Below are positions 7,456 to 52,784 of a stretch of 64,000 nt of DNA, piece after piece. The DNA is taken from NCBI GenBank assembly GCA_023267755.1, contig JAHFMR010000002.1, positions 42,463 through 106,462 of the forward strand. Reading direction: 5' to 3'. This stretch comes from a bacterium. GTDB taxonomy: Bacteria; Patescibacteriota; Minisyncoccia; Phycocordibacterales; Phycocordibacteraceae. The translations under genes and the position numbers were made by a program. The notes under the pieces are model-generated. The model saw nothing but the letters and a program-made list of their open reading frames with translations. It ran no database searches and was not told where the DNA came from. The stretch's first letter is position 1. Every line of letters starts with the position of its first letter.

Positions 7456-8643
7456 ATGCGCCGAACACTTATTATTACCGGAATAGTCGTTGTCATCATC
7501 GGAGTCGGGGTCGCTATTTATTTCCTCTTCTTCGCGAAGCCGGCGATTACTGTCCCCGACACGACTCTTCCTTCTGCGGGGCAGGGGACCCTCCCTTCGG
7601 GGAGCGCTTCGGACGCTACAGCCCCCCAGAGCGGCCCCAAGGCCGTTACTGCGCGCTTGGTTAAGATTAGTGCTGGCCCGGTCGTCCCGGGCGAGGCGGT
7701 CGTTGATAAACGCGGATCCACTGCGAGCTCATCGCCTGAGGTTGTGGTCAATTACATCGAGCGCCAGAGTGGTAATGTCTTTATCTACTCTGAGACTACC
7801 CGGACACTCACTCGCGTCTCCAACAAAACACTCCCGGGTATCCAGTCCGCCGCGTGGCTCTCCGATGGCTCGGCGGCGCTGGTGCGGTATCTCTCGGGCG
7901 CGGACTCCTCCACGATAAACACTTACGCACTCTTCGCGACAAGCTCAGACGGGTTTTTCTTATCCCAAAACCTTACCGATGTCGCTGTCTCTTCGACAAA
8001 CATCCTGACGCTCGCCTCTGGTGTGAACGGTTCTGTCGCCTCACTCTCGAACAAAGACGGTTCCCATTCGGTCTCCATCTTCACTTCGCCGCTCTCTGCC
8101 CTCCGGCTCTCGTATGCGGGGAAGGATCATTATCTCGCTTTCACCAAGCCTTCAAATGCTCTTGCCGGTGGCGCATTTCTTGTTGATACCGCTGGGAATT
8201 TTTCCCGTGTCGGTGGCGCCCACAACGGTCTTGTCGCGCTTGCGAGTCCGAGCGGCAAATGGGTTCTTATCAGCTCGGCCCGCGGAGGCACGATGCAGCT
8301 GGAACTGGTAGACACTACTACCAGTGAGAGTATTGCTCTCCCGGTCGCCACTATCGCGGATAAATGCGTGTGGGCTACTGATGATTCGGCCATCTACTGT
8401 GGTGTTCCGACAACGTCTCCCGCTGGCGCTGTGTATCCTGATGACTGGTATCAGGGTGCGGTGCACTTCTCTGATCGTATCTGGAAGATTCAGGTCGCCG
8501 GCCGCTATGCACAGCTCGTGCTCGATTTTCCAAAGGAGGCCAAGGATGTGTTGGATGCCTGGGCACTTGCGCTCGACCCATCAGAGACGACGCTCGTCTT
8601 TGTTAATAAGAATGATGGCTCTCTCTGGAGCTATTCTCTATAG
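7456..8643 (+). CDS. Hypothetical membrane-anchored extracytoplasmic protein, probably a beta-propeller-like fold
   Basis: It has a single N-terminal TM anchor and a long Ser/Thr/Gly-rich ectodomain. It is the last gene of the co-directional block downstream of virB4. Confidence 0.5.
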   Translation: MRRTLIITGIVVVIIGVGVAIYFLFFAKPAITVPDTTLPSAGQGTLPSGSASDATAPQSGPKAVTARLVKISAGPVVPGEAVVDKRGSTASSSPEVVVNYIERQSGNVFIYSETTRTLTRVSNKTLPGIQSAAWLSDGSAALVRYLSGADSSTINTYALFATSSDGFFLSQNLTDVAVSSTNILTLASGVNGSVASLSNKDGSHSVSIFTSPLSALRLSYAGKDHYLAFTKPSNALAGGAFLVDTAGNFSRVGGAHNGLVALASPSGKWVLISSARGGTMQLELVDTTTSESIALPVATIADKCVWATDDSAIYCGVPTTSPAGAVYPDDWYQGAVHFSDRIWKIQVAGRYAQLVLDFPKEAKDVLDAWALALDPSETTLVFVNKNDGSLWSYSL

Positions 8644-9366
8644 GCCGTCCGTGACAAGCCGGCGGCGGACATAGAGCTCTTGCAGTGAACCGGCAAGGTT
8701 CGTGGTGATAAAGTAGAGCGCGATAGCACTCGAGGTGGTGTAGGAAATAGTTCCGATGAGGAAGGGAAATACATATTTCAGCTGCATTCCCATCACTTTC
8801 TGAAAATCGTTCTGAACTCCTTTTGTGTCCGAAGGCTTCATCGTACCTGAGAGCGAGAGGTGTGCCTGGAGGAATTGGGTGAGGCCCGCAATAACCGCAA
8901 GAATAAGGCTCTTTCCGGCGACCGAGAGAATCCCGAGGAATTCGAGCGACACGAGATGTGGAAGGGGTGTGGCTGTATAGAGCCGGGCGGTATTGATAGT
9001 CGAGAATGGCTCGTAGAGGAAGACAAAATAGAGCGCGAGGAGGACGGGGATCTGGATAAATGCCGAGAGAATACTGACAAACGGGTTCACCTGCGCTTCG
9101 CGGTAGAGATCGAGTGTCTCGAGCGCTTCTTTTTCCTTATCACCCTTATGCTTCTCTTTCAGTTCTTTTATCTTGGGCTCCAGTATCTTTATCGCTCGTT
9201 GAGTGCGTGCTGCAGAGAGTGAGAAAGGGAGCAGAATGAGCCTGATGATTATCGTGAGGATGATAACCGCGACTCCCACATCGCCCCCGGGGACGAGCGC
9301 GACGAGCGCGACGAGCGTGTTATAGATCGGGTTATAAAAAAAGGAGTTGAAGAGAGAAGAGATCAC
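8638..9366 (-). CDS. yidC: Membrane protein insertase YidC (short form)
   Basis: It has a YidC/Oxa1-like core with conserved TM helices and the LYREAQVNPF and IQIPVLLALYFVF motifs. It lies immediately downstream of rnpA in the canonical origin arrangement. Confidence 0.85.
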   Translation of the reverse strand: MISSLFNSFFYNPIYNTLVALVALVPGGDVGVAVIILTIIIRLILLPFSLSAARTQRAIKILEPKIKELKEKHKGDKEKEALETLDLYREAQVNPFVSILSAFIQIPVLLALYFVFLYEPFSTINTARLYTATPLPHLVSLEFLGILSVAGKSLILAVIAGLTQFLQAHLSLSGTMKPSDTKGVQNDFQKVMGMQLKYVFPFLIGTISYTTSSAIALYFITTNLAGSLQELYVRRRLVTDGL

Positions 9367-9383
9367 AAGGGTATTGTACGTTA

Positions 9384-9695
9384 TTAACGAATTTTAGAAA
9401 GAATATCGGCGAGTTCTGCTTGTATATCCTGATAAGACATCCGTGCAACGGTCGCGCGCGGGAAGAGGATAAGGGCGGCAGGGAGAAGTGGAGTAGCACG
9501 GAGTACTGAGAGAATCTGGCGTTTTATCCTGTGCCGTGTCACCGAAAGCCGCGCAATCTTCTTGGGCACCACTACCGCGTACCCCGTAGCTGCTGCGGGG
9601 ATGATGGCCGTAAAATTGGCTGAGGAGAGTCGCTTCCCCGCAGAGAGCGCCGCAGGGAAGGATGCTCGAGAAAATCTTCTCCGACGAGGAAACAC
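9384..9695 (-). CDS. rnpA: Ribonuclease P protein component
   Basis: It is a basic protein carrying a RnpA-type RNR-like motif (VTRHRIKRQILSVLR). It is positioned between rpmH and yidC. Confidence 0.8.
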   Translation of the reverse strand: MFPRRRRFSRASFPAALSAGKRLSSANFTAIIPAAATGYAVVVPKKIARLSVTRHRIKRQILSVLRATPLLPAALILFPRATVARMSYQDIQAELADILSKIR

Positions 9696-9701
9696 AGTAC
9701 C

Positions 9702-9845
9702 CTAGACGGACGTTGTAAGACTCTTTCGTCCGACACGCCGACGGCCCTGGACAATCTTGCGGCCAGAGGCTGTTTTGCTCCGAGTAAGGAAGCCGTGCGT
9801 CTTAGCACGCTTCCTTTTCTTCGGCTGATAGGTCATTTTCGCCAT
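9702..9845 (-). CDS. rpmH: 50S ribosomal protein L34
   Basis: Hand translation of the minus strand gives [47 protein letters not shown], the canonical L34 sequence. At 47 aa it is below the ORF-track cutoff and so not listed there. Confidence 0.9.
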
Positions 9846-9943
9846 ACTGAATGCAAATTAGGTTATACCCATGATACTAACAGGTTCTCCCCGAAACACC
9901 ACCCTGTCTTGTTTTAGTGTAAAAGCGTATACTCCAGAATATT

Positions 9944-11293
9944 ATGGACAAAGGGAATCCGAAGGAATTGTGGGAATACATTCTTACTCAGGTTGAACTC
10001 TCTGTTTCTCCAGCAAACTTCAATACATGGTTCCGAAACAGCTTCATCGTAAAGATTGAAGATGGAGTTATCTATGTCGGCGTGCCGAGTCAATTCTTCA
10101 AAGACTGGTACCTTAAGAAGTTCCACACACTCCTTCTAAAGATTGTCCGTGATATTTCTTATGAGTTCCGCAATATTGAGTATCTCATTGTGAAGGATGA
10201 ACGCCGTAAGGTGCAGAAGGAGGTAAAAAACACTCGTGGCGTACTCGAACTTCCGCTTGATGAGTTTTATATCAACAAAAGCGATAGTCTAAACCCACGT
10301 TACACCTTCGACACGTTCGTCATTGGTTCCTTTAATAATCTCGCTTATGCAGCAGCGCAGGCGGTGCTTACGCGTCCTGGTATCACCTATAACCCTCTCT
10401 TTATTTACGGTGACACGGGGCGCGGCAAGACCCATTTAATTCAAGCTATTGGTAATCAGTATAAGAAACAATATCCAGGGCGTAAGGCGTTTTATCTGAC
10501 TTCAGAGAAGTTTACAATCGACTACACTGACTCGGTTCAGGCCGGTACGGCAAACCGTTTTAAAGATAAATATCGTCAGTATGATCTGCTTATTATGGAT
10601 GATGTGCAGTTCCTATCGAAGAAACTAAAGACTGAGGAGGAGCTCTTCCATCTCTTTAACACACTTCACGACACTAATAAGCAGATTATTTTCTCCTCTG
10701 ATCGTGCGCCTGCGGCTATTCCTGATATAGCCGACCGCCTGAAGGGGCGCCTCGCGAGTGGTATGACCATAGATATCGGCGAACCCGATCCTGAATCCCG
10801 TATGGCGATAGTGAAGAGGAAAGCTGCTTCTCACGGGGTGATGCTCTCTGATGAAGTGGTTGAGTATGTCGCCACTACTATGAGTGGTTCTATTCGTGAA
10901 CTTGAGGGTATGGTGAATAATCTTATCTGTCACGCACAAGTAAAAGGTTTTGCGCCGGATATTCTTGAAGTTCGTCAGTCACTCCGATCATTTACCCGCC
11001 CCCAGAAGACTATTTCTGTAAAAAATGTCGTTGATAAGGTTGCTTCTTTTTATGGTATTGATGAAGAGAGTATTTATGAGAAGACTCGTAGAAGGGAGGT
11101 GGTGCGCCCGCGCCAAGTAATTATGTACATCCTTCGAGAAGATTTTAATATTTCATATCCCACTATTGGAACAAAACTTGGTGGTCGTGATCACACGACT
11201 GTTATCCACTCCTGTGAAAAAATAAAACGTGAAGTAGTTGTTGATACTGATCTCGCAAAAGAAATTCAGAATATTCGCACTCTTCTTGTATGA
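9944..11293 (+). CDS. dnaA: Chromosomal replication initiator DnaA
   Basis: The AAA+ Walker A GDTGRGKTHL and Walker B LLIMDDVQF motifs are present, together with a C-terminal DnaA-box-binding HTH domain (IGTKLGGRDHTTVIHSCEKI). Confidence 0.95.
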   Translation: MDKGNPKELWEYILTQVELSVSPANFNTWFRNSFIVKIEDGVIYVGVPSQFFKDWYLKKFHTLLLKIVRDISYEFRNIEYLIVKDERRKVQKEVKNTRGVLELPLDEFYINKSDSLNPRYTFDTFVIGSFNNLAYAAAQAVLTRPGITYNPLFIYGDTGRGKTHLIQAIGNQYKKQYPGRKAFYLTSEKFTIDYTDSVQAGTANRFKDKYRQYDLLIMDDVQFLSKKLKTEEELFHLFNTLHDTNKQIIFSSDRAPAAIPDIADRLKGRLASGMTIDIGEPDPESRMAIVKRKAASHGVMLSDEVVEYVATTMSGSIRELEGMVNNLICHAQVKGFAPDILEVRQSLRSFTRPQKTISVKNVVDKVASFYGIDEESIYEKTRRREVVRPRQVIMYILREDFNISYPTIGTKLGGRDHTTVIHSCEKIKREVVVDTDLAKEIQNIRTLLV

Positions 11294-11405
11294 CTTCTTT
11301 CAACGTATTGTACACAGGTTATCTTTTTGAAAAGAGTAAAAATAATCAATATATACAAGCATTTTTTGACCTATCCCCACTATCCACTATACTAATAAGC
11401 ATCGT
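11294..11405. promoter_or_regulatory. Candidate oriC segment (dnaA-dnaN spacer) with an AT-rich unwinding stretch and degenerate DnaA boxes
   Basis: The AT-rich run aaaagagtaaaaataatcaatatatacaag is followed by ctATCCCCActATCCACTa, two 7/9 matches to TTATCCACA. The spacer sits between dnaA and dnaN. Confidence 0.5.
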
Positions 11406-12506
11406 ATGATTATTTCTTTAGATAAAAAAATATTCTCTGAAGCAGTGCATACTGTTGCTCGTTTTGCAGAGCGGAAGAGTGGAACACTTCCTGTACTCTC
11501 ATCCATCCTTATTCTTGCTGGAGATGAAGGAATTAAATTACGTGCAACAAATCTTGAAACAGGTATTGATTTAAAACTCGAAGGAACCTGTACTACAAAA
11601 GGAGTAGTTGCTGTCCCCGCAGTAGTCTTACAACAAATTGCTGGATCACTCACAAATGAGGGGAGTATTACTCTTGAACACACTGGAGATATTCTTTCAC
11701 TCTCAAGCGGCACAGGGAAAAGTTCAATAAAAACAATTCCTTACGATGATTTCCCCTCAATTCCATTCCCAGAAAATCCAAAAAATAGAATCATCCTCCC
11801 GGGAATCATTTTAAAAAACCTCTTCACCACTATCGCCTCCTGCGCTTCCTCCTCAACTATCCGCCCAGAACTCTCAAGTATCTATCTTTCTATTGAAGGA
11901 GGAGTATTAACAGCTGTTGCAACAGACTCATTCAGGCTCGCAGAAAAGAAAGTTCCCCTCACTAATAAAGGGACACAAGGAAAATTCCTTATTCCCGCGA
12001 AGAATGCACTCGATATAGCGCAAGCACTTCCAGATGACGATATTATTATTTCATTTGATGAGCACCAATGCGCTTTTGTGAGTCAGGGTGGTATGCTCGT
12101 TTCGCGTCTTACGAACGCAACCTACCCCGACTACCGGCAAATAATTCCAAAAGAGTCTGTTGTTGAAGCGGTAATACTTAGGAAAGATTTTGAGACCGCA
12201 CTAAAACGAACAACTATCTTCTCAGATGCATTCCAGAAAATACGTATCAGCTTCGATCAGAAGAAGAATAAATTTATATTATTCGCGCGAAATACTGATA
12301 TTGGAGAATCCACCGAGACAATCTCTGCAAACATATCTGGAACTGCACTCGACCTCTCGTTTAATCACCGGTATCTCTCAGCGGTGCTCGCACTTACTAA
12401 TGCCGAGAGTCTCTCGCTTCTTGCTGCGGGTATCGGCCGCCCACTTATCATCAAGGGTGTTGGAGACACCTCACTCCTCTACCTCGTTTCACCGATGAAT
12501 CAGTAG
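11406..12506 (+). CDS. dnaN: DNA polymerase III beta sliding clamp
   Basis: It is 366 aa, has a three-domain clamp pattern and lies immediately after dnaA. Confidence 0.9.
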   Translation: MIISLDKKIFSEAVHTVARFAERKSGTLPVLSSILILAGDEGIKLRATNLETGIDLKLEGTCTTKGVVAVPAVVLQQIAGSLTNEGSITLEHTGDILSLSSGTGKSSIKTIPYDDFPSIPFPENPKNRIILPGIILKNLFTTIASCASSSTIRPELSSIYLSIEGGVLTAVATDSFRLAEKKVPLTNKGTQGKFLIPAKNALDIAQALPDDDIIISFDEHQCAFVSQGGMLVSRLTNATYPDYRQIIPKESVVEAVILRKDFETALKRTTIFSDAFQKIRISFDQKKNKFILFARNTDIGESTETISANISGTALDLSFNHRYLSAVLALTNAESLSLLAAGIGRPLIIKGVGDTSLLYLVSPMNQ

Positions 12507-43079: not shown

Positions 43080-43610
43080 CTAGGGGAGCATGATGCGCTC
43101 GCGCATCTGGAAAGAGGTGACGTGCGTATCGCGCGGGTCCCAGTGTTTCGAGGGTTCGATACTCCGTATCGCCCACGACTCTGGCGGTACTGTCGGGAAG
43201 AACGTGTCGCCTGAAATCTGGGCATGAACGAGCGTGAGGTATATCCGCTGCGCGAGAAGCATCGCTTCTCGGTAGATCTCGCCGCCGCCGATGATGAAGA
43301 CCTCTTCAGCGCCGTGCGTACCCATAGCGGCGATACAAGCGTCTGCAAACGAAGGGACAACTATCGCACCCTCGGCTTGGTAGCCTGCTTGTCGTGTGAG
43401 GACGATATTGGTCCTTTCGGGGAGTGGCTGGAAGGCTTCGGGAAGAGACTCCCAGGTTGCCCGTCCCATAACGACCGGGTGTCCGGTCGTAATCCGTTTG
43501 AACCGCGCCAGATCGCTCGGGAGATGCCACGGCAGCTTGCCGCCCTGGCCGATAGTCCCGTTTGTCGCCCTCGCGACGATGATAGAAAGAACAGTCTTTG
43601 TATTGCACAT
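43080..43610 (-). CDS. folA: Dihydrofolate reductase
   Basis: LSIIVA...NGTIG..GKLPW, LP.D...FK..T and VVMGR.TWESL match DHFR signature segments. Confidence 0.85.
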   Translation of the reverse strand: MCNTKTVLSIIVARATNGTIGQGGKLPWHLPSDLARFKRITTGHPVVMGRATWESLPEAFQPLPERTNIVLTRQAGYQAEGAIVVPSFADACIAAMGTHGAEEVFIIGGGEIYREAMLLAQRIYLTLVHAQISGDTFFPTVPPESWAIRSIEPSKHWDPRDTHVTSFQMRERIMLP

Positions 43611-43797
43611 AATGCACTCCCTTTTTCGATATGAACCCCTGCATAGTCTCGCGATATGCCTCTGGCGTCAACTCCGACGCTACTGGTCGGAGCCCCGACT
43701 CTGACGTCGGGGCTGCTTGCGCCATGCCCCCTTCGAGCGTAGAGTGCGCACAGATTTACCCTGTTCCAAATCATCCCACACAAACTCAGGAGGCCAT

Positions 43798-44622
43798 ATG
43801 GCTGCAGCATTCAATGAAATCACCGTCCGCGTTCTCGCACGTACCGTCGTCGATCGACAAGCGGTGCGGGAATGGCTCGACGAAATGGGGGCGAATGAAT
43901 TCGAGATCCCTTCCGAAGAAACTGTATCCGATCCGGCTCTTCTCGTGGCGCTTGCAGCAAAGCAGTGCTACATGGCATTCCAGCCGGGGCTGAACCCGAA
44001 CGTCAACAAGGTCCGCAAGGATATGGTCGAATACCTCGACAATGTCCTGAAGCAACGCCACGGTTCTGTTCTCGAACATGCGGTGTTCAGTTTCGGCGTC
44101 AACGGATGTTCGAGGGTCTTTACAGGCGAAATGAATCGGCATCGGGCCGGTGTCGGTATTTCCGAGCGAAGCATGCGATACATCCGGTATACCAACATCA
44201 AGTTCTGGATGCCGGAGTGCTTCCGTGATGAGGAGGGTGATACCTCCGCCATTCTTGAGAAGAAACGACTCTCTCGGGAACGGCTTACAGCCCAATTCGC
44301 AAGTCAAGAGGACATGATGGCATTCTTTGCTGAAGTCTGGAAGGAAGAACTCGCTCCCGAGAGCACCTTCCATGCGAAGAAGGTCCTGACCTCGGCATTT
44401 CGGCGCGGCATCGGTATGGGCGTTGCGACCGGCGGTGTCTGGTCGCTCAACTTGCGGGCGCTTCGTCACGTGATTGCGCTGCGTACCGATGAAGGCGCCG
44501 AGGAAGAGATTGCTCACGTCTTCAAGAAGGTCGGCAAGATCATGCTTGCGCAAGTGCCGGAACTCTTCGGGGACTTCAAGGAAGTGAATGGAGTCCTCGT
44601 TCCTGAGTACTGGAAGGTGTAA
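43798..44622 (+). CDS. thyX: Flavin-dependent thymidylate synthase ThyX
   Basis: It has the RHR-x8-S ThyX motif (NRHRAGVGISERS). An AGGAGG RBS lies 6 nt upstream of the ATG. The start is at an internal Met of a longer ORF. Confidence 0.8.
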   Translation: MAAAFNEITVRVLARTVVDRQAVREWLDEMGANEFEIPSEETVSDPALLVALAAKQCYMAFQPGLNPNVNKVRKDMVEYLDNVLKQRHGSVLEHAVFSFGVNGCSRVFTGEMNRHRAGVGISERSMRYIRYTNIKFWMPECFRDEEGDTSAILEKKRLSRERLTAQFASQEDMMAFFAEVWKEELAPESTFHAKKVLTSAFRRGIGMGVATGGVWSLNLRALRHVIALRTDEGAEEEIAHVFKKVGKIMLAQVPELFGDFKEVNGVLVPEYWKV

Positions 44623-44648
44623 TCGGCTGGCCCTCCACGGCTCACTCA

Positions 44649-44676
44649 ACGGCGACTACGGTCGCCGTTTCTTTTT
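44649..44676 (+). terminator. Rho-independent terminator after thyX
   Basis: A ggcgac-tacg-gtcgcc hairpin is followed by gtttcttttt. Confidence 0.75.
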
Positions 44677-44778
44677 ATACAAAATTGCTTTTTACGCCTC
44701 CGGCGCGTACAGTTTGCCCGGGTTGCACACATTGTCATCAATCAGAAACCAAACGCTATAGGCGGAAGGAGTGCCATC

Positions 44779-45894
44779 ATGTTGGATAACGAAAAACCAG
44801 TCGTCCTTGCTGACCGGGACTTGCACGCGATCATCACGGGCGAGGCGCCCTTCATCACCAAGCAAGACAGCTTTACACTCGATCAGATTCAGGCTTCATC
44901 GCTCGATCTCACTCTCGGGTCGCAGGTGTTCGGTATGGGTGTCGCATCTCTGCCGCGCAGTGGCGGGAGTGTCGCCGATCTACTCAAAGGGAATCAGTAC
45001 GCCTTTGATCTCAATATCGGCCAGCCAGGCTTCCTGCATCGCGGCTACACCTACATCGTGCCGCTTAATGAAGGACTTCTGCTCCCCGAAGGGTTTTCGG
45101 CGAAGTTCTCACCCAAGAGCTCGACGGGTCGCACCGATACGTTCGTGCGCATTCTGGCCGACGGCGTACCGCGTTTCGACTACGTACCAGAAGGGTATCA
45201 GGGAAGTTTGTACCTCGAGATTACGCCGCTGTCGTTCCCGATCCTCATCCGTCCAGGCCTCTCGCTCGTGCAGATGCGGATTCGCAATGGCGATGCTCGT
45301 CTGACCGGCAAAGAGGTCGCCATCATGCATTCCCATAAGGGCATCTTTATGGACAAGGGCGGCAAAGTAATCCTGACGCACGACTTGAAGCTGGCCGAGC
45401 ACGGCGTGTATATGCACATCGATCTCGATCGCGATATTGTCGGATTTGCCTCGCGCACCAATGTGGCGAGCGCGCTTACGCTCTTCGACTCGGCAACGCA
45501 CGACTGGAGTGAGTTCTGGGAGCCGATCAGGCGCCCCCGAAACGGTCTCACACTAAATCCCGACCGGTTCTACCTCCTTCCAACAAAAGAGCGGGCGCGT
45601 ATCCCGAACGACGTGTGCGGCGATATCGCTCCCTACGACGCTTCAACCGGGGAGTTCCGTACACACTACGCGGGATTCTTCGATCCGGGCTTTGGTGGCG
45701 AGTTCGGCATCACGGGCGTCCTGGAAGTTCGCGGCAGAGAAGTGCCGCACCGCCTCTTCGATAACGATCCGATCTGCCTTATGAACTTCGAGCGAGTCAG
45801 TCCGGTCTCGAAGCCGTATGACGGGAACTACCAGAATCCCGGACCGTCGCTCTCGAAACACTTCAAGGAGCGATATGAAGCGTGGGGGACCTGA
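44779..45894 (+). CDS. Tandem-domain dCTP deaminase/dUTPase-superfamily protein (2'-deoxycytidine 5'-triphosphate deaminase-like)
   Basis: There are two dUTPase-fold halves. The first carries the KSSTGRTD motif (dCTP deaminase (K/R)SSxxRxG) and the second carries a DPGFGGE motif. At 371 aa it is about twice the size of a canonical Dcd. Confidence 0.6.
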   Translation: MLDNEKPVVLADRDLHAIITGEAPFITKQDSFTLDQIQASSLDLTLGSQVFGMGVASLPRSGGSVADLLKGNQYAFDLNIGQPGFLHRGYTYIVPLNEGLLLPEGFSAKFSPKSSTGRTDTFVRILADGVPRFDYVPEGYQGSLYLEITPLSFPILIRPGLSLVQMRIRNGDARLTGKEVAIMHSHKGIFMDKGGKVILTHDLKLAEHGVYMHIDLDRDIVGFASRTNVASALTLFDSATHDWSEFWEPIRRPRNGLTLNPDRFYLLPTKERARIPNDVCGDIAPYDASTGEFRTHYAGFFDPGFGGEFGITGVLEVRGREVPHRLFDNDPICLMNFERVSPVSKPYDGNYQNPGPSLSKHFKERYEAWGT

Positions 45895-45910
45895 TGGTGC
45901 CAAAATTTTG

Positions 45911-45947
45911 CCCGCGACGACGCCAGTCGTCGCGGGCTTCTCTTTTG
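45911..45947 (+). terminator. Rho-independent terminator
   Basis: A cccgcgacgac-gccag-tcgtcgcggg hairpin is followed by cttctctttt. Confidence 0.75.
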
Positions 45948-45998: not shown

Positions 45999-46646
45999 AT
46001 GAAAGCGAAATATGTGGTATTCGACGGTATGGACGGCTCAGGGAAGGGGACGCAGATCGAGCTCCTGAAGAGGGCACTCGGCGATTCGGTATTCTTCACA
46101 CGCGAGCCGGGTGGTCCGCCGCTTGCCGAGGAGATACGGAAGATTGTCCGCGATAGCCCTCTCGCAGGGCAATCAACAGCGCTTTTCCACTTCCTCGGTT
46201 TCTGGATGGCGAGAGAAGAGACGATGCACAAGCTCGTTATACCCACGCTGCAGTCGGGCAAGCACGTCTTTTCTGACCGGGGAGAGTCGTCGACCGTCGC
46301 GTTTCAGCTCTGGGGCGAGGAACATCACGAGCTCCAACACGCATTCGATATCATGCACGCATTGGTGTTTGACGAGCGGCACGAGCCCGATCTCTACATC
46401 ATCTTCGACCTGCCGGCCGAAGTCGCTCGCGAACGGGTGATGCGCGATGCAAATCGCGAGACGAACCATTTCGACGAACGTGATCTCGCGTACTACGAGC
46501 GCGTGCGCGAAGGGTTTCGCGAGTTCGCGAAACATCTGCCGGTCGAGTTCGTCGATGCAACGGGTTCGCCAGAAGAGATACACCGTTCTGTGCAGATGGT
46601 TCTTGCGCGACGAATGATTCTCCCCGAGCTGGCGTTCCTTGTGTGA
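45999..46646 (+). CDS. tmk: Thymidylate kinase
   Basis: It has the FDGMDGSGKGTQ P-loop and a TREPGG motif. Confidence 0.9.
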   Translation: MKAKYVVFDGMDGSGKGTQIELLKRALGDSVFFTREPGGPPLAEEIRKIVRDSPLAGQSTALFHFLGFWMAREETMHKLVIPTLQSGKHVFSDRGESSTVAFQLWGEEHHELQHAFDIMHALVFDERHEPDLYIIFDLPAEVARERVMRDANRETNHFDERDLAYYERVREGFREFAKHLPVEFVDATGSPEEIHRSVQMVLARRMILPELAFLV

Positions 46647-46710
46647 CAACCTCGTCCGTTCCCGGCGCGCTCTTGGCGCGCCGGTTTTTCATTTCTGGTA
46701 CAGTAGCCAG

Positions 46711-47976
46711 ATGAAATTCCCTTTCATAAAGAGAGAAGACCCAGAGATATACACCGCGCTCGTGGGTGAGGAGAAGCGGCAGGCCGAGGGACTGGAGCTC
46801 ATCCCCAGCGAGAACTACGTCTCGCACGCAGTGAAGGAAGCGATGGCCTCTTCGCTTACCAATAAGTATGCCGAAGGGTATCCCGGCAAGCGTTACTACG
46901 GCGGACAGGAGTTCACCGACGCGGTCGAGACACTCGCGATAGAGCGCGCGAAGAAGCTCTTTGGTGCGAAATTTGCAAACGTGCAGCCGCTTGGCGGCGC
47001 CAATGCGAACATCGCGATGTACTTCGCCCTCCTCTCTCCCGGCGACACCGTGCTCGGGATGGATCTCTCACACGGCGGCCACCTGACTCACGGCCACCCG
47101 GTAACCTATCTCACCAAGATCTTCAACTTCGTCCATTATGGGATGAAGGATGTCGAGACGGGCGAGATTGACTACGACGAGATGCGTCGCGTCGCCAAGA
47201 AGACAAAGCCTAAGATTATCCTCGCGGGCTTCTCGGCGTATCCGCGCGAGCTCGACTATGCGAAGTTTGTAAAGATTGCGCGCGAGGTGGGCGCGCTTGC
47301 GGTGATGGACATCGCGCACATCGCGGGACTCATCGCGGGTAAGGCGGCCAAGAATCCGTTTGACTACGGCTTCGATATTATGACCACCACGACGCACAAG
47401 ACGCTGCGCGGCCCGCGTGGCGGGATGATCCTCGTGCGCGAGAGCGAAGAGCTGGCAAAGAAGATCGACAAAGCAATTTTCCCAGGCTTCCAGGGCGGCC
47501 CGCATATGCACCAGATAGCCGCCAAGGCAGTCGCCTTCGGCGAAGCACTTCGACCCTCATTTAAGAAATACGCGAAGCAGATTATCAAGAATGCAAAGGC
47601 GATGGAAAAAGTCTTTAAGAAAAGTGGCGCGCGTATGCTCGCTGGCGGTACCGATAACCACCTTATCCTGCTCGACGTGTGGACCTCGTATGGCATCTCG
47701 GGTGGGGAAGCGGAGCGGCTGCTTGATAGGGCGGGCATCACGCTCAATAAGAACGCGATCGCTGACGACACAAGGAAGCCGATGGACCCGTCCGGCATCC
47801 GCTTTGGCACACCGGCGATCACGACGCGCGGACTCGGCTCTGCAGAATCCGCGCGCGTGGCCGAGCTGATGATCGAGGTACTCACTAAGCGCGACGACAC
47901 GACAGTCGTGCGCGTGAGAAAAGAGATTAAGAAGCTCGCAAAGGCCTTCCCAATACCAGACTCATTTGAGAAGTAA
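46711..47976 (+). CDS. glyA: Serine hydroxymethyltransferase
   Basis: It has the PLP-lysine region TTTHKTLRGPRGG and the N-terminal LIPSENYVS motif. Confidence 0.95.
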   Translation: MKFPFIKREDPEIYTALVGEEKRQAEGLELIPSENYVSHAVKEAMASSLTNKYAEGYPGKRYYGGQEFTDAVETLAIERAKKLFGAKFANVQPLGGANANIAMYFALLSPGDTVLGMDLSHGGHLTHGHPVTYLTKIFNFVHYGMKDVETGEIDYDEMRRVAKKTKPKIILAGFSAYPRELDYAKFVKIAREVGALAVMDIAHIAGLIAGKAAKNPFDYGFDIMTTTTHKTLRGPRGGMILVRESEELAKKIDKAIFPGFQGGPHMHQIAAKAVAFGEALRPSFKKYAKQIIKNAKAMEKVFKKSGARMLAGGTDNHLILLDVWTSYGISGGEAERLLDRAGITLNKNAIADDTRKPMDPSGIRFGTPAITTRGLGSAESARVAELMIEVLTKRDDTTVVRVRKEIKKLAKAFPIPDSFEK

Positions 47977-49958: not shown

Positions 49959-52784
49959 ATGGCCGATATGCCGGAGAAGTCAGACGCCGCTAAGAGAGAG
50001 GAAGCGATACTCGCGTTCTGGCAGAAGGAGCGCATCTTCGAGAAATCGCTCGAGAAGGAAGCTCCGGGGGGCGACTTTGTATTTTATGATGGTCCGCCGT
50101 TTGCAACCGGCACGCCGCATTATGGGCACATCGTCGCGAGCGTGATCAAAGACGTTGTACCGCGCTACTGGACTATGCGCGGTTACCATGTCCCGCGCGT
50201 TTGGGGCTGGGATTGTCACGGTCTGCCGATTGAAAATATTGTCGAGAAAGAGCTCGGCTTCAAACACAAGAAAGATATCAAGGAATACGGCATCGCGAAT
50301 TTTAATGAGCGTTGTCGCGAACGCGTGCTCACCTATGTCGACTACTGGAAGACGTTCATCCCACGCATTGGTCGCTGGGCTGATATGGAGAACGCCTACA
50401 GCACAATGGACAAATCTTTTATGGAGAGCGTCTGGTGGGTCTTCAAGACAATCTACGACAAAGGGCTTGTCTACGAGGATTATCGCGTGATGCATATCTG
50501 TCCGCGCTGTGAGACGACGCTCTCGCAACAGGAAGTTTCAGAAGGATACAAAGACGTGAAAGATATCGCGGTGACGGTGAAGTTCAAAGTAAAAAATCCG
50601 GAGCAGCTAGGAGTGCCGCATGATAATCAAGTCTGTATTCTTGCGTGGACTACAACACCTTGGACGCTTCCGGGTAACGTGGCGCTCGCGATTGGCGAGA
50701 AGATTCAGTATGTGATGTGGACTGACGCTGAGGAGGGCAGGGGCGCAGTTAGTTATATTGCATCAGCTGCTTGGTTCAATAAGAATCAAGTTCAGTCTGT
50801 TACCGTACCAGTTTCTACAGAAGTTCTTAAATCTCTCGAATACGAACCACTCTTTGATTACTACAGCAAAGATACATCACTCAAGAATCATGAGAATGGT
50901 TGGAAGGTGTGTGCCGCAGATTTTATAACTACTGATACTGGCACTGGCATCGCGCACGAAGCGCCGGCTTTCGGTGCGGACGATTGGGAACTCTCGAAGC
51001 AATACAATCTGCCATTCGTGCAGCACGTAAACTACGACGGCACGATGAAGAGTGAAGTGACGGCTTTTGCCGGCATGGAGGTGAAGCCGCGTTCAGATGA
51101 TGACTCAGTGCGGCTTGGTACCGACATCGCGGTGCTCAAATATCTACAGGAGCACAGCACGCTCTTCACGAAAGAGAACATAACGCACTCCTACCCGCAT
51201 TGCTGGCGCTGTGATACACCGCTCCTCAACTACGCGACGAGCTCATGGTTTGTTTCCGTTATGAAGATCAAAGAGAATATGCTCGAAAATGCCAAGAGCA
51301 TCTCGTGGTCGCCAGTGCACATTAAGGATGGCCGCTGGGGTAAGTGGCTCGAGGGCGCACGCGATTGGTCTATCTCACGTCAGCGCTTCTGGGCGAGCGC
51401 GATACCGATGTGGCGCTGTGACTCATGCAAGGGGGTACGTGTCTTCGGAGGGGCGGCCGAGCTTGAGGAGGCGAGTGGGAAGAAGATCGATGATTTGCAT
51501 AAACATATTGTCGACGAGATCACCGTGCCCTGCGCCTGCGGCGGCGTGATGCACCGTATCCCGGACGTGCTCGACACCTGGTTCGACTCCGGCTCGATGC
51601 CCTATGGAGAGAAGCACTATCCCTTCGAAGGGAAAGAAAGTTTTGATGCACAGTTCCCGGCACAATTTATCGCCGAGGGCATCGACCAGACACGCGCTTG
51701 GTTCTACTACCTGCACGTGCTCGCGGGCGCACTCTTTGAGAAGAATGCATTTCAAAATGTGATTGTAAACGGTATCGTGCTCGCCGAAGACGGCAAGAAG
51801 ATGTCGAAGCGCCTGCAGAATTACCCCGATCCGATGGATGTTGTAAATAAGTACGGCGCCGACGCACTCCGGCTCTATCTACTCGCTTCGCCTGTTATGC
51901 AGGCCGAGAATCTCGCGTTCTCCGAGAGCGGCGTTGACGAAATTGCTAAGAAGAATATTGGGCGCTTGAGTAATGTGCTCGCGTTCTACAAGCTCTTTGC
52001 AGGTGGCACTGCCGCCGCTACAAGCAAGAATATCCTCGATGTGTGGATCCTGGCACGACTCGGCGAGCTCCTACAAGAATCCACCGAGGGATATGAACAA
52101 TACCGGCTCGACAGTGCGACGAGGGCACTCGCACCGTTCATCGACGATCTCTCGGCGTGGTATGTGCGTCGCTCGCGCGATCGGTTCAAGGAAGGGAGTA
52201 ATGAAAGGGGAGAAGCCGTCTCGACCCTGCGCTATGTGCTCCACGAACTCGCTATCATCATGGCACCAGCGATGCCCTTCATCGCCGAGGAGATATTCCA
52301 GGAAGTACGCGAGAAAACGGATCCAGAAAGTGTGCATCTAGCTGGTTGGCCCTACTTCGCTGAAGCTACGAAGGGCGCGCCCGAAGTGAATGGAAAGCTG
52401 ATTGAAGAGATGGCGCACGTGCGCTCCCTCGCTTCGGAGACGCTCCAATTGCGTCAGAAAGCAAACATAAAAGTGCGTCAGCCGCTCGCCAAGCTCACCG
52501 TGCCTGAAGCCCTCTCGAGCGAGCTCGCGCAGATTCTCGCGGATGAAGTAAATGTGAAAGAAATCGTTATGGGAGGGGAGCTCGCACTCGACACCGAGCT
52601 CACCCCCGAGCTCATCAAGGAGGGCGATGAACGTGAAATGGCGAGCGCTGTCGCGCAAGCACGCAAGGCGGAGAGGCTCTCGCCGGCCGATGTGGCGCAT
52701 GCCACGATAAATGAAGGAGGGAAGTATAGTGCGGCGCTCTCGACAGGCGAAGTACGTTTCGACCTGATTAAAGATGCGGCATAA
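49959..52784 (+). CDS. ileS: Isoleucine--tRNA ligase
   Basis: It has HYGH (HIGH class I), KMSKR (KMSKS), a CP1 editing domain and C-terminal zinc-binding Cys pairs. It is 941 aa. Confidence 0.95.
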   Translation: MADMPEKSDAAKREEAILAFWQKERIFEKSLEKEAPGGDFVFYDGPPFATGTPHYGHIVASVIKDVVPRYWTMRGYHVPRVWGWDCHGLPIENIVEKELGFKHKKDIKEYGIANFNERCRERVLTYVDYWKTFIPRIGRWADMENAYSTMDKSFMESVWWVFKTIYDKGLVYEDYRVMHICPRCETTLSQQEVSEGYKDVKDIAVTVKFKVKNPEQLGVPHDNQVCILAWTTTPWTLPGNVALAIGEKIQYVMWTDAEEGRGAVSYIASAAWFNKNQVQSVTVPVSTEVLKSLEYEPLFDYYSKDTSLKNHENGWKVCAADFITTDTGTGIAHEAPAFGADDWELSKQYNLPFVQHVNYDGTMKSEVTAFAGMEVKPRSDDDSVRLGTDIAVLKYLQEHSTLFTKENITHSYPHCWRCDTPLLNYATSSWFVSVMKIKENMLENAKSISWSPVHIKDGRWGKWLEGARDWSISRQRFWASAIPMWRCDSCKGVRVFGGAAELEEASGKKIDDLHKHIVDEITVPCACGGVMHRIPDVLDTWFDSGSMPYGEKHYPFEGKESFDAQFPAQFIAEGIDQTRAWFYYLHVLAGALFEKNAFQNVIVNGIVLAEDGKKMSKRLQNYPDPMDVVNKYGADALRLYLLASPVMQAENLAFSESGVDEIAKKNIGRLSNVLAFYKLFAGGTAAATSKNILDVWILARLGELLQESTEGYEQYRLDSATRALAPFIDDLSAWYVRRSRDRFKEGSNERGEAVSTLRYVLHELAIIMAPAMPFIAEEIFQEVREKTDPESVHLAGWPYFAEATKGAPEVNGKLIEEMAHVRSLASETLQLRQKANIKVRQPLAKLTVPEALSSELAQILADEVNVKEIVMGGELALDTELTPELIKEGDEREMASAVAQARKAERLSPADVAHATINEGGKYSAALSTGEVRFDLIKDAA

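Follow-up and report, generated by a model that had tools for sequence, protein, structure and literature searches.

A two-domain dCTP deaminase gene in a thymidylate cluster: a known double-length family and a predicted composite active site

The reading frame at 44779..45894 of the window, by which we mean the whole 64-kb stretch of DNA analysed here, encodes a protein of 371 amino acids that the initial annotation described as an unusual fusion of two halves, each with the fold of dCTP deaminases (Dcd) and dUTPases. The question raised by such a protein is whether its halves are equivalent, as in the pseudo-dimeric trimer with six sites and dUTPase activity that was put forward for it, or whether they contribute different parts of one active site, and the answer depends on what family the protein belongs to, on which catalytic residues each half has kept and on the genes among which it is encoded.

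The gene, its two domains and their family

The open reading frame is a real one. It starts with ATG and is preceded by a Shine-Dalgarno-like sequence, and two other public contigs carry an identical 371-aa protein in the same gene order. The gene, its flanking signals and the domains of its product are as follows.

44648-44669: terminator-like hairpin upstream of the DCD gene (consensus scan, pattern match only)
44764..44771, + strand: Shine-Dalgarno-like GGAAGGAG, ending 7 nt before the ATG (direct sequence reading)
44779..45894, + strand: coding sequence of the two-domain 2'-deoxycytidine 5'-triphosphate deaminase (DCD_N + DCD_C), stop codon included
44803..45291, + strand: N-terminal Dcd-like domain, residues 9-171 (PF06559 DCD_N, PF22769, hhalign)
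45292..45375, + strand: poorly conserved inter-domain linker, residues 172-199 (secondary structure of the model, with a helix at 177-187; conservation)
45376..45864, + strand: C-terminal Dcd-like domain, residues 200-362 (PF22569 DCD_C, PF22769, TIGR02274, PDB alignments)
45910..45937, + strand: terminator-like GC-rich hairpin followed by a T-rich run, right after the DCD stop codon (consensus scan, pattern match only)

The whole protein passes the Pfam gathering scores of both DCD_N (144.5 bits against a cutoff of 21.4, E 3.5e-42) and DCD_C (130.5 bits against a cutoff of 22, E 6.4e-38). The proposal that it is a fused pair of dUTPase-superfamily, Dcd-like domains, which would have had to be given up if only one half matched the fold, is upheld by the PF22769 'dCTP deaminase-like' profile, since the N half alone scores 83.1 bits and the C half alone 69.1 bits against a cutoff of 27. 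The two motifs on which that proposal was based are likewise found where they had been placed, KSSTGRTD at residues 113-120 in the N half and DPGFGGEFG at residues 302-310 (45682-45708) in the C half. Against E. coli Dcd, hhalign gives the N half a probability of 95.5% and an E value of 1.6e-8, and residues 254-365 of the C half align with TIGR02274 and with the PDB entries 4xjc, 8y1w and 9ln0. Direct comparison of the N half with the C half by BLASTP gave no significant match, and their profiles show a weak similarity (hhalign, E 0.0025); hence, the duplication is ancient and visible through profiles and structure only. The family as a whole would go back to this early event, in which a Dcd-like dUTPase-fold domain was duplicated in tandem. 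An AlphaFold2 model built from 106 homologues reaches a pLDDT of 95.2 and a pTM of 0.93.

The architecture, first taken to be unusual, proves instead to be that of a named Pfam/NCBIfam family with a solved structure and routine RefSeq annotation, and the 371-aa protein is an ordinary member of this double-length dCTP deaminase family. NCBIfam model NF005734/PRK07559 aligns with it from end to end (residues 5-364 of the protein with positions 7-367 of the 368 in the profile) at 280.3 bits, 2.7 bits under the equivalog cutoff of 283. PDB entry 2R9Q, a 370-aa protein of Agrobacterium tumefaciens with the identical product name, whose crystal structure was deposited in 2007, matches residues 9-363 (E 1e-63), and the three-dimensional arrangement of the two domains is as in this solved member. 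A word-indexed search returned more than 6,326 homologues, with both domains present in 120 of the 120 listed, and 1,003 representatives of 50%-identity clusters were recovered at E <= 1e-30. The family is spread over the Patescibacteria, Alphaproteobacteria, Nitrospirota and other phyla, and a genome scan confirmed at least 597 loci in the Rhizobiales, Rhodobacterales, Brucella, Bradyrhizobium, Nitrospirota, Nitrospinota, Acidobacteriota, Planctomycetota and Actinomycetota. RefSeq routinely gives the alphaproteobacterial copies the same product name. Among the matches listed, those with a name that come closest to the window protein are from Paceibacteria/Parcubacteria MAGs, at 43-48% identity, which makes a Patescibacteria-like genome the probable source of the window.

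Two other affiliations were considered and rejected. Kinship to the phage dCTP deaminases was discarded because those are zinc-dependent, CDA-type enzymes unrelated to this fold (PMC12697855); a tblastn search of 50,697 phage records with the 371-aa protein gave no match. A dCTP deaminase of a nucleotide-depleting defence system was ruled out by the housekeeping thymidylate cluster in which the gene lies and by the full-length match to a housekeeping family.

Conservation of catalytic residues in the two halves

Conservation was scored in 214 diverse relatives, comprising 50%-cluster representatives and genome loci that share 31-50% identity with the query. Motifs were mapped on E. coli Dcd, taken from NC_000913.3, with the profile of each half aligned separately.

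45115..45138, + strand: motif II of the N half, K113-S114-S115-T-G117-R118-T-D120, corresponding to R110, S111, S112 and R115 of E. coli Dcd
45178..45219, + strand: motif III-like hairpin and strand of the N half, D134 to E147, present here and not strictly conserved in the family
45271..45279, + strand: Q165-M-R167 of the N half
45649..45660, + strand: G291-E292-F-R294 of the C half, at the place of motif II (alignments to 4xjc and E. coli Dcd)
45664..45726, + strand: motif III of the C half, H296-Y-A-G-F-F-D302-P-G-F-G-G-E-F-G ... L-E316, aligning with D128 and E138 of E. coli Dcd
45817..45864, + strand: C-terminal lid-like tail, Y347 to F362, with Y351 and K360, aligning with the Y..Y.. tail of single-domain Dcd

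Only four residues are strictly invariant (214/214), three of them in the N half (S114, R118 and Q165) and the fourth, E316, in the C half. Around S114 and R118, motif II keeps G117 in 213 and K113 in 206 of the 214 sequences; D43, in motif I of the N half, is kept in 213, and R167 accompanies the invariant Q165 in 209. Both Q165 and R167 lie on the conserved strand that comes next in the N half, and from the motif pattern we would read Q165-M-R167 as motif IV-like. The best-conserved block of the protein is H296-Y-A-G-F-F-D302-P-G-F-G in the C half, where A298 is found in 213 relatives, G299 in 212 and D302 in 209, and it is followed by E316, which aligns with E138 of E. coli Dcd, and by the lid-like tail (Y351 in 212/214, K360 in 201/214). 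The four invariant residues, together with D43, G117, A298, G299, D302 and Y351, are all present in the window protein.

The halves differ from each other in what is missing from them. The N half is without a C-terminal lid, its last part being a helix-linker of poor conservation. The motif II position of the C half is taken by G291 (205/214), E292 (195/214), F and R294 (208/214), and the catalytic Ser and Arg of that motif, in the form of a Ser-Ser-x-x-Arg sequence, are absent in either alignment register, whether that to 4xjc or that to E. coli Dcd. The motif III positions are occupied in both halves but are not equally constrained. E147, which also aligns with E138 of E. coli Dcd, is kept in 194 of 214 relatives and replaced by L, I, V, M, F, S, Q or H in the other 20, whereas E316 is lost in none (Fisher p = 1.2e-6); D134 is kept in 193 and lost in 21, against five losses of D302 (p = 0.002). 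All 20 of the E147-less sequences retain D43, K/R113, S114, S/T115, G117, R118, Q165, H296, A298, G299, D302, E316, Y351 and K/R360. The surface that would face the other way, formed by the N-half hairpin and the C-half G-E-x-R, is nevertheless conserved well above background, G142 being found in 208 and Y140 in 198 of the 214 sequences, next to R294, G291, E292 and E147 at the counts given above.

The thymidylate gene cluster

The DCD gene lies in a compact group of genes for thymidylate and folate metabolism.

43080..43610, - strand: dihydrofolate reductase (DHFR, folA; PF00186, E 1.8e-51)
43798..44622, + strand: flavin-dependent thymidylate synthase (thyX), 274 aa in the gene call for the identical contig (PF02511, E 2.2e-33)
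45999..46646, + strand: thymidylate kinase (tmk; PF02223, E 1.9e-26)
46639..47976, + strand: serine hydroxymethyltransferase (SHMT, glyA; PF00464, E 5.3e-151, match from residue 31)

The SHMT gene is followed by that for ArgRS; on the upstream side, there are secE, nusG and the L11 ribosomal protein gene. On the contigs with an identical protein, DHFR, ThyX, DCD, Tmk and SHMT are encoded in the same order, and ThyX, ThyA and Tmk neighbours are found as well in relatives at 45-73% identity, including one locus (L083) where a ThyX of 458 aa adjoins the DCD gene and another (L084) where the order is DCD, a 482-aa fusion of MtrA, ThyA and pterin-binding domains, Tmk and a ThyX of 451 aa. The folA, thyX, tmk and glyA neighbours, together with these thymidylate links in relatives, support a role of the protein in supplying dUMP precursors for dTMP synthesis, and the earlier suggestion that it feeds thymidylate synthesis is a reasonable one, given that its gene adjoins thyX. 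The enzyme would deaminate dCTP to dUTP, from which pyrophosphate would be removed, by a separate Dut or by the same enzyme, to give the dUMP that the adjacent ThyX would methylate, and the co-encoded Tmk, SHMT and DHFR would complete the dTTP and folate steps. Without added dTTP or dUTP, a Caulobacter gene annotated as dCTP deaminase (dcd, CCNA_02320) is essential (bioRxiv 10.1101/870733), and these genetics fit a role in dUMP-precursor supply, if that gene is of the long form; the 80 loci kept from the genome scan had members from the Hyphomonadaceae and none from Caulobacter. For genome annotation, the DCD gene can be said to complete a compact dTMP module of folA, thyX, dcd, tmk and glyA.

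Several features of the neighbourhood were observed in passing. The DHFR gene adjoins thyX divergently (43080-44622 of the window). Flavin-dependent ThyX leaves its folate un-oxidised, that is, not converted to dihydrofolate, and since ThyX yields no dihydrofolate, the thymidylate cycle does not require this pairing. The SHMT reading frame, as listed from 46639, begins with a TTG inside the 3' end of tmk, and a terminator-like hairpin lies within it at 46662-46684; given this overlap, the internal hairpin and the Pfam match from residue 31, the true start is probably an internal Met ('MKFPFIK') near 46711. The ThyX proteins encoded beside DCD at L083:8423-9799 and L084:13316-14671 are about twice the usual length, that of the window having 274 aa, and may be tandem or fused forms. 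Directly downstream of the DCD homologue, L084:11103-12551 encodes the 482-aa protein with Pfam matches to MtrA, Thymidylat_synt (ThyA) and PterinBD-DUF4346, and this looks like an unusual ThyA fusion with a ThyX in the same cluster. Farther downstream, L083:12858-16184 and L084:14774-18379 encode class I tRNA synthetases (1108-1201 aa) with an inserted histidine phosphatase (His_Phos_1) domain, for which Pfam found no match in the window counterpart at 49959-52784 (941 aa).

Elsewhere in the window, two replication genes were identified with Pfam.

9944-11293: dnaA
11406-12506: dnaN

They lie in the stretch of lowest GC content in the window (0.418 at 10001-12000), and the GC skew turns from negative to positive near 8 kb; positions 8000-12506 are a probable chromosomal replication origin region.

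Readings of the active site and comparison with known enzymes

In trimeric enzymes of this fold, each site is shared by two neighbouring subunits, of which one provides motif III and the other motifs I, II and IV (PMC12524310). The invariant residues of the double-length family form one complementary set of this kind, to which the N half contributes motifs I, II and IV and the C half contributes motif III, the Glu and the lid. As judged from these residues, the two halves appear to be complementary and not equivalent, which favours one composite site per N/C pair over two sites per chain. The best explanation of the protein, and the one that we hold with fair assurance on the strength of its sequence, is therefore that it would be a dCTP deaminase of the two-domain DCD family with one canonical composite site made from two specialised halves. 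The N half would supply the phosphate-binding face with the catalytic Ser and Arg (D43, K113-S114-S115-G117-R118 and Q165/R167), and the C half would bind the nucleoside with its hairpin (H296 to D302) and add the catalytic Glu316 together with the C-terminal lid (Y351, K360), giving one canonical deaminase site for each N/C pair, whether the pairing occurs within one chain or between chains. In this composite site, Glu316 would activate water, S114 and R118 would assist catalysis, and the triphosphate would be held by the lid and the basic residues of the N half. These catalytic roles are assigned by analogy, the model being the mechanism that Johansson et al. are said to have described for E. 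coli Dcd in 2005. What has been observed of the 371-aa protein is its family, the fold of each half, the pattern of residues and the genes nearby; its substrate, the geometry of the composite site and its oligomeric state are inferred. The reciprocal surface, made of D134 and E147 of the N half and the G-E-x-R of the C half, would be a vestige or, at best, an accessory site for binding a nucleotide. Some second site with a function may exist, because about 90% of the relatives, like the window protein, have the Asp and Glu of motif III in the N half, and because the C-half G-E-x-R is highly conserved. Both the prediction of a composite site and the status of the second surface belong to the whole family and not to the window locus.

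The initial annotation had instead proposed that both halves are catalytically competent, so that a trimer of pseudo-dimers would have six sites and might act as a bifunctional dCTP deaminase-dUTPase passing dUMP directly to ThyX. Each half does pass a Dcd-like profile, and Asp and Glu occupy the motif III positions in both (D134/E147 and D302/E316), but the C half has G-E-x-R in place of Ser-Ser-x-x-Arg, the N half has no lid, and E147 is dispensed with in relatives that retain all other key residues, while E316 never is. Hence, six sites per trimer are not supported, the halves not being equivalent, and we regard this reading as improbable. Its bifunctional aspect could draw on the finding that no dut, short dcd or zinc-type deaminase motif was seen either in the 64 kb of the window or around 80+ related loci; the search, however, covered the window and 6-10 kb on either side of about 80 such loci, which are small fractions of the genomes, and for that reason has no bearing on bifunctionality. 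To our knowledge, there is no sequence signature that separates mono- from bifunctional Dcd enzymes and applies here, and bifunctional activity as such is neither favoured nor disfavoured.

An intermediate case would be a single catalytic composite site accompanied by a diverged second site, formed by the N-half hairpin and the C-half G-E-x-R, for binding a regulatory nucleotide, as in feedback by dTTP, or for hydrolysis of dUTP. The residues concerned are far more conserved than neutral positions, but they may do no more than hold the fold and the domain interface, the fact that 9% of relatives have lost E147 makes catalysis there less likely and, in single-domain Dcd, dTTP is reported to bind in the active site itself and not in a separate one. 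That single-domain Dcd enzymes are regulated by dTTP (PMC4827122) speaks for the idea; on balance, we find it rather unlikely. Its more specific form, a division of labour in which the composite N/C site deaminates dCTP and a site of D134, Y140, E147 and G291-E292-x-R294 either hydrolyses dUTP or senses dTTP allosterically, must be counted as unlikely too, although, if true, it would make the protein a single-chain equivalent of the Dcd plus Dut of other bacteria, one that, in Patescibacteria with their small genomes, could stand in for a dut gene that is missing. It might also be argued that the long-form family is misnamed, its members being dUTPases or deaminases of another cytosine nucleotide. 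Our literature search found no biochemical assay of any long-form member and no relevant paper discussing 2R9Q, so that the name rests on homology; some archaeal proteins annotated as Dcd have proved to be dUTPases (PMC5122711), and the N half weakly matches the archaeal dUTPase model NF002598 (E 5.6e-4). Yet the Ser, Arg and Glu aligned with S111, R115 and E138 of E. coli Dcd are invariant across the family, the thyX, tmk, folA and glyA neighbours are those among which supply of a dUMP precursor is expected, and dTTP or dUTP rescues the Caulobacter dcd phenotype, if that gene is of the long form, all of which makes misnaming very improbable indeed.

The preferred reading, of one composite site built from two specialised halves, predicts that S114, R118, Q165 and E316 would be essential and E147 dispensable. 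If borne out, it would show how a duplicated enzyme of a trimeric fold has re-partitioned one active site between two domains. As a discovery, the locus itself is of small value, for the family has its own Pfam and NCBIfam models, a structure since 2007 and automatic annotation in many genomes.

Among known systems, single-domain homotrimeric Dcd (E. coli, 193 aa; TIGR02274) has the same fold as each half of the window protein, which keeps its R/K-S-S-x-x-R in the N half and its D-P-G-[FW] hairpin, catalytic Glu and Tyr-rich C-terminal tail in the C half. The window protein differs from it in being twice as long and in having the full residue set in neither half alone; TIGR02274 matches the C half only, at 54.1 bits against an equivalog cutoff of 92.8, and the catalytic residues are split between the halves. 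The bifunctional dCTP deaminase-dUTPases of M. tuberculosis (2QXX), B. halodurans (4XJC) and M. jannaschii (1OGH) are, unlike the window protein, single-domain enzymes. The monomeric dUTPase of herpesviruses (EBV 2BSY/2WE1, PRV 8ZWQ) is likewise a tandem duplication of the same fold, in which conservation of one complementary set of motifs leaves a single site between the two domains (PMC12524310), and the composite site proposed here follows the same single-site logic. The arrangement is reversed, however: in the herpesvirus enzyme, which is a hydrolase and not a deaminase, domain 1 provides motif III and domain 2 the motifs I, II and IV, whereas here motifs I, II and IV would be those of domain 1, and motif III and the lid those of domain 2. 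The herpesvirus-type order of III, I, II, IV and V along one chain is not found in the window protein. Closest of all is the two-domain DCD of A. tumefaciens (2R9Q), which resembles the window protein in length (370 against 371 aa), domains and invariant residues, and from which the latter differs in having its nearest named relatives in the Paceibacteria/Parcubacteria, not in the Alphaproteobacteria, and in being encoded in a cluster with thyX, tmk, folA and glyA.
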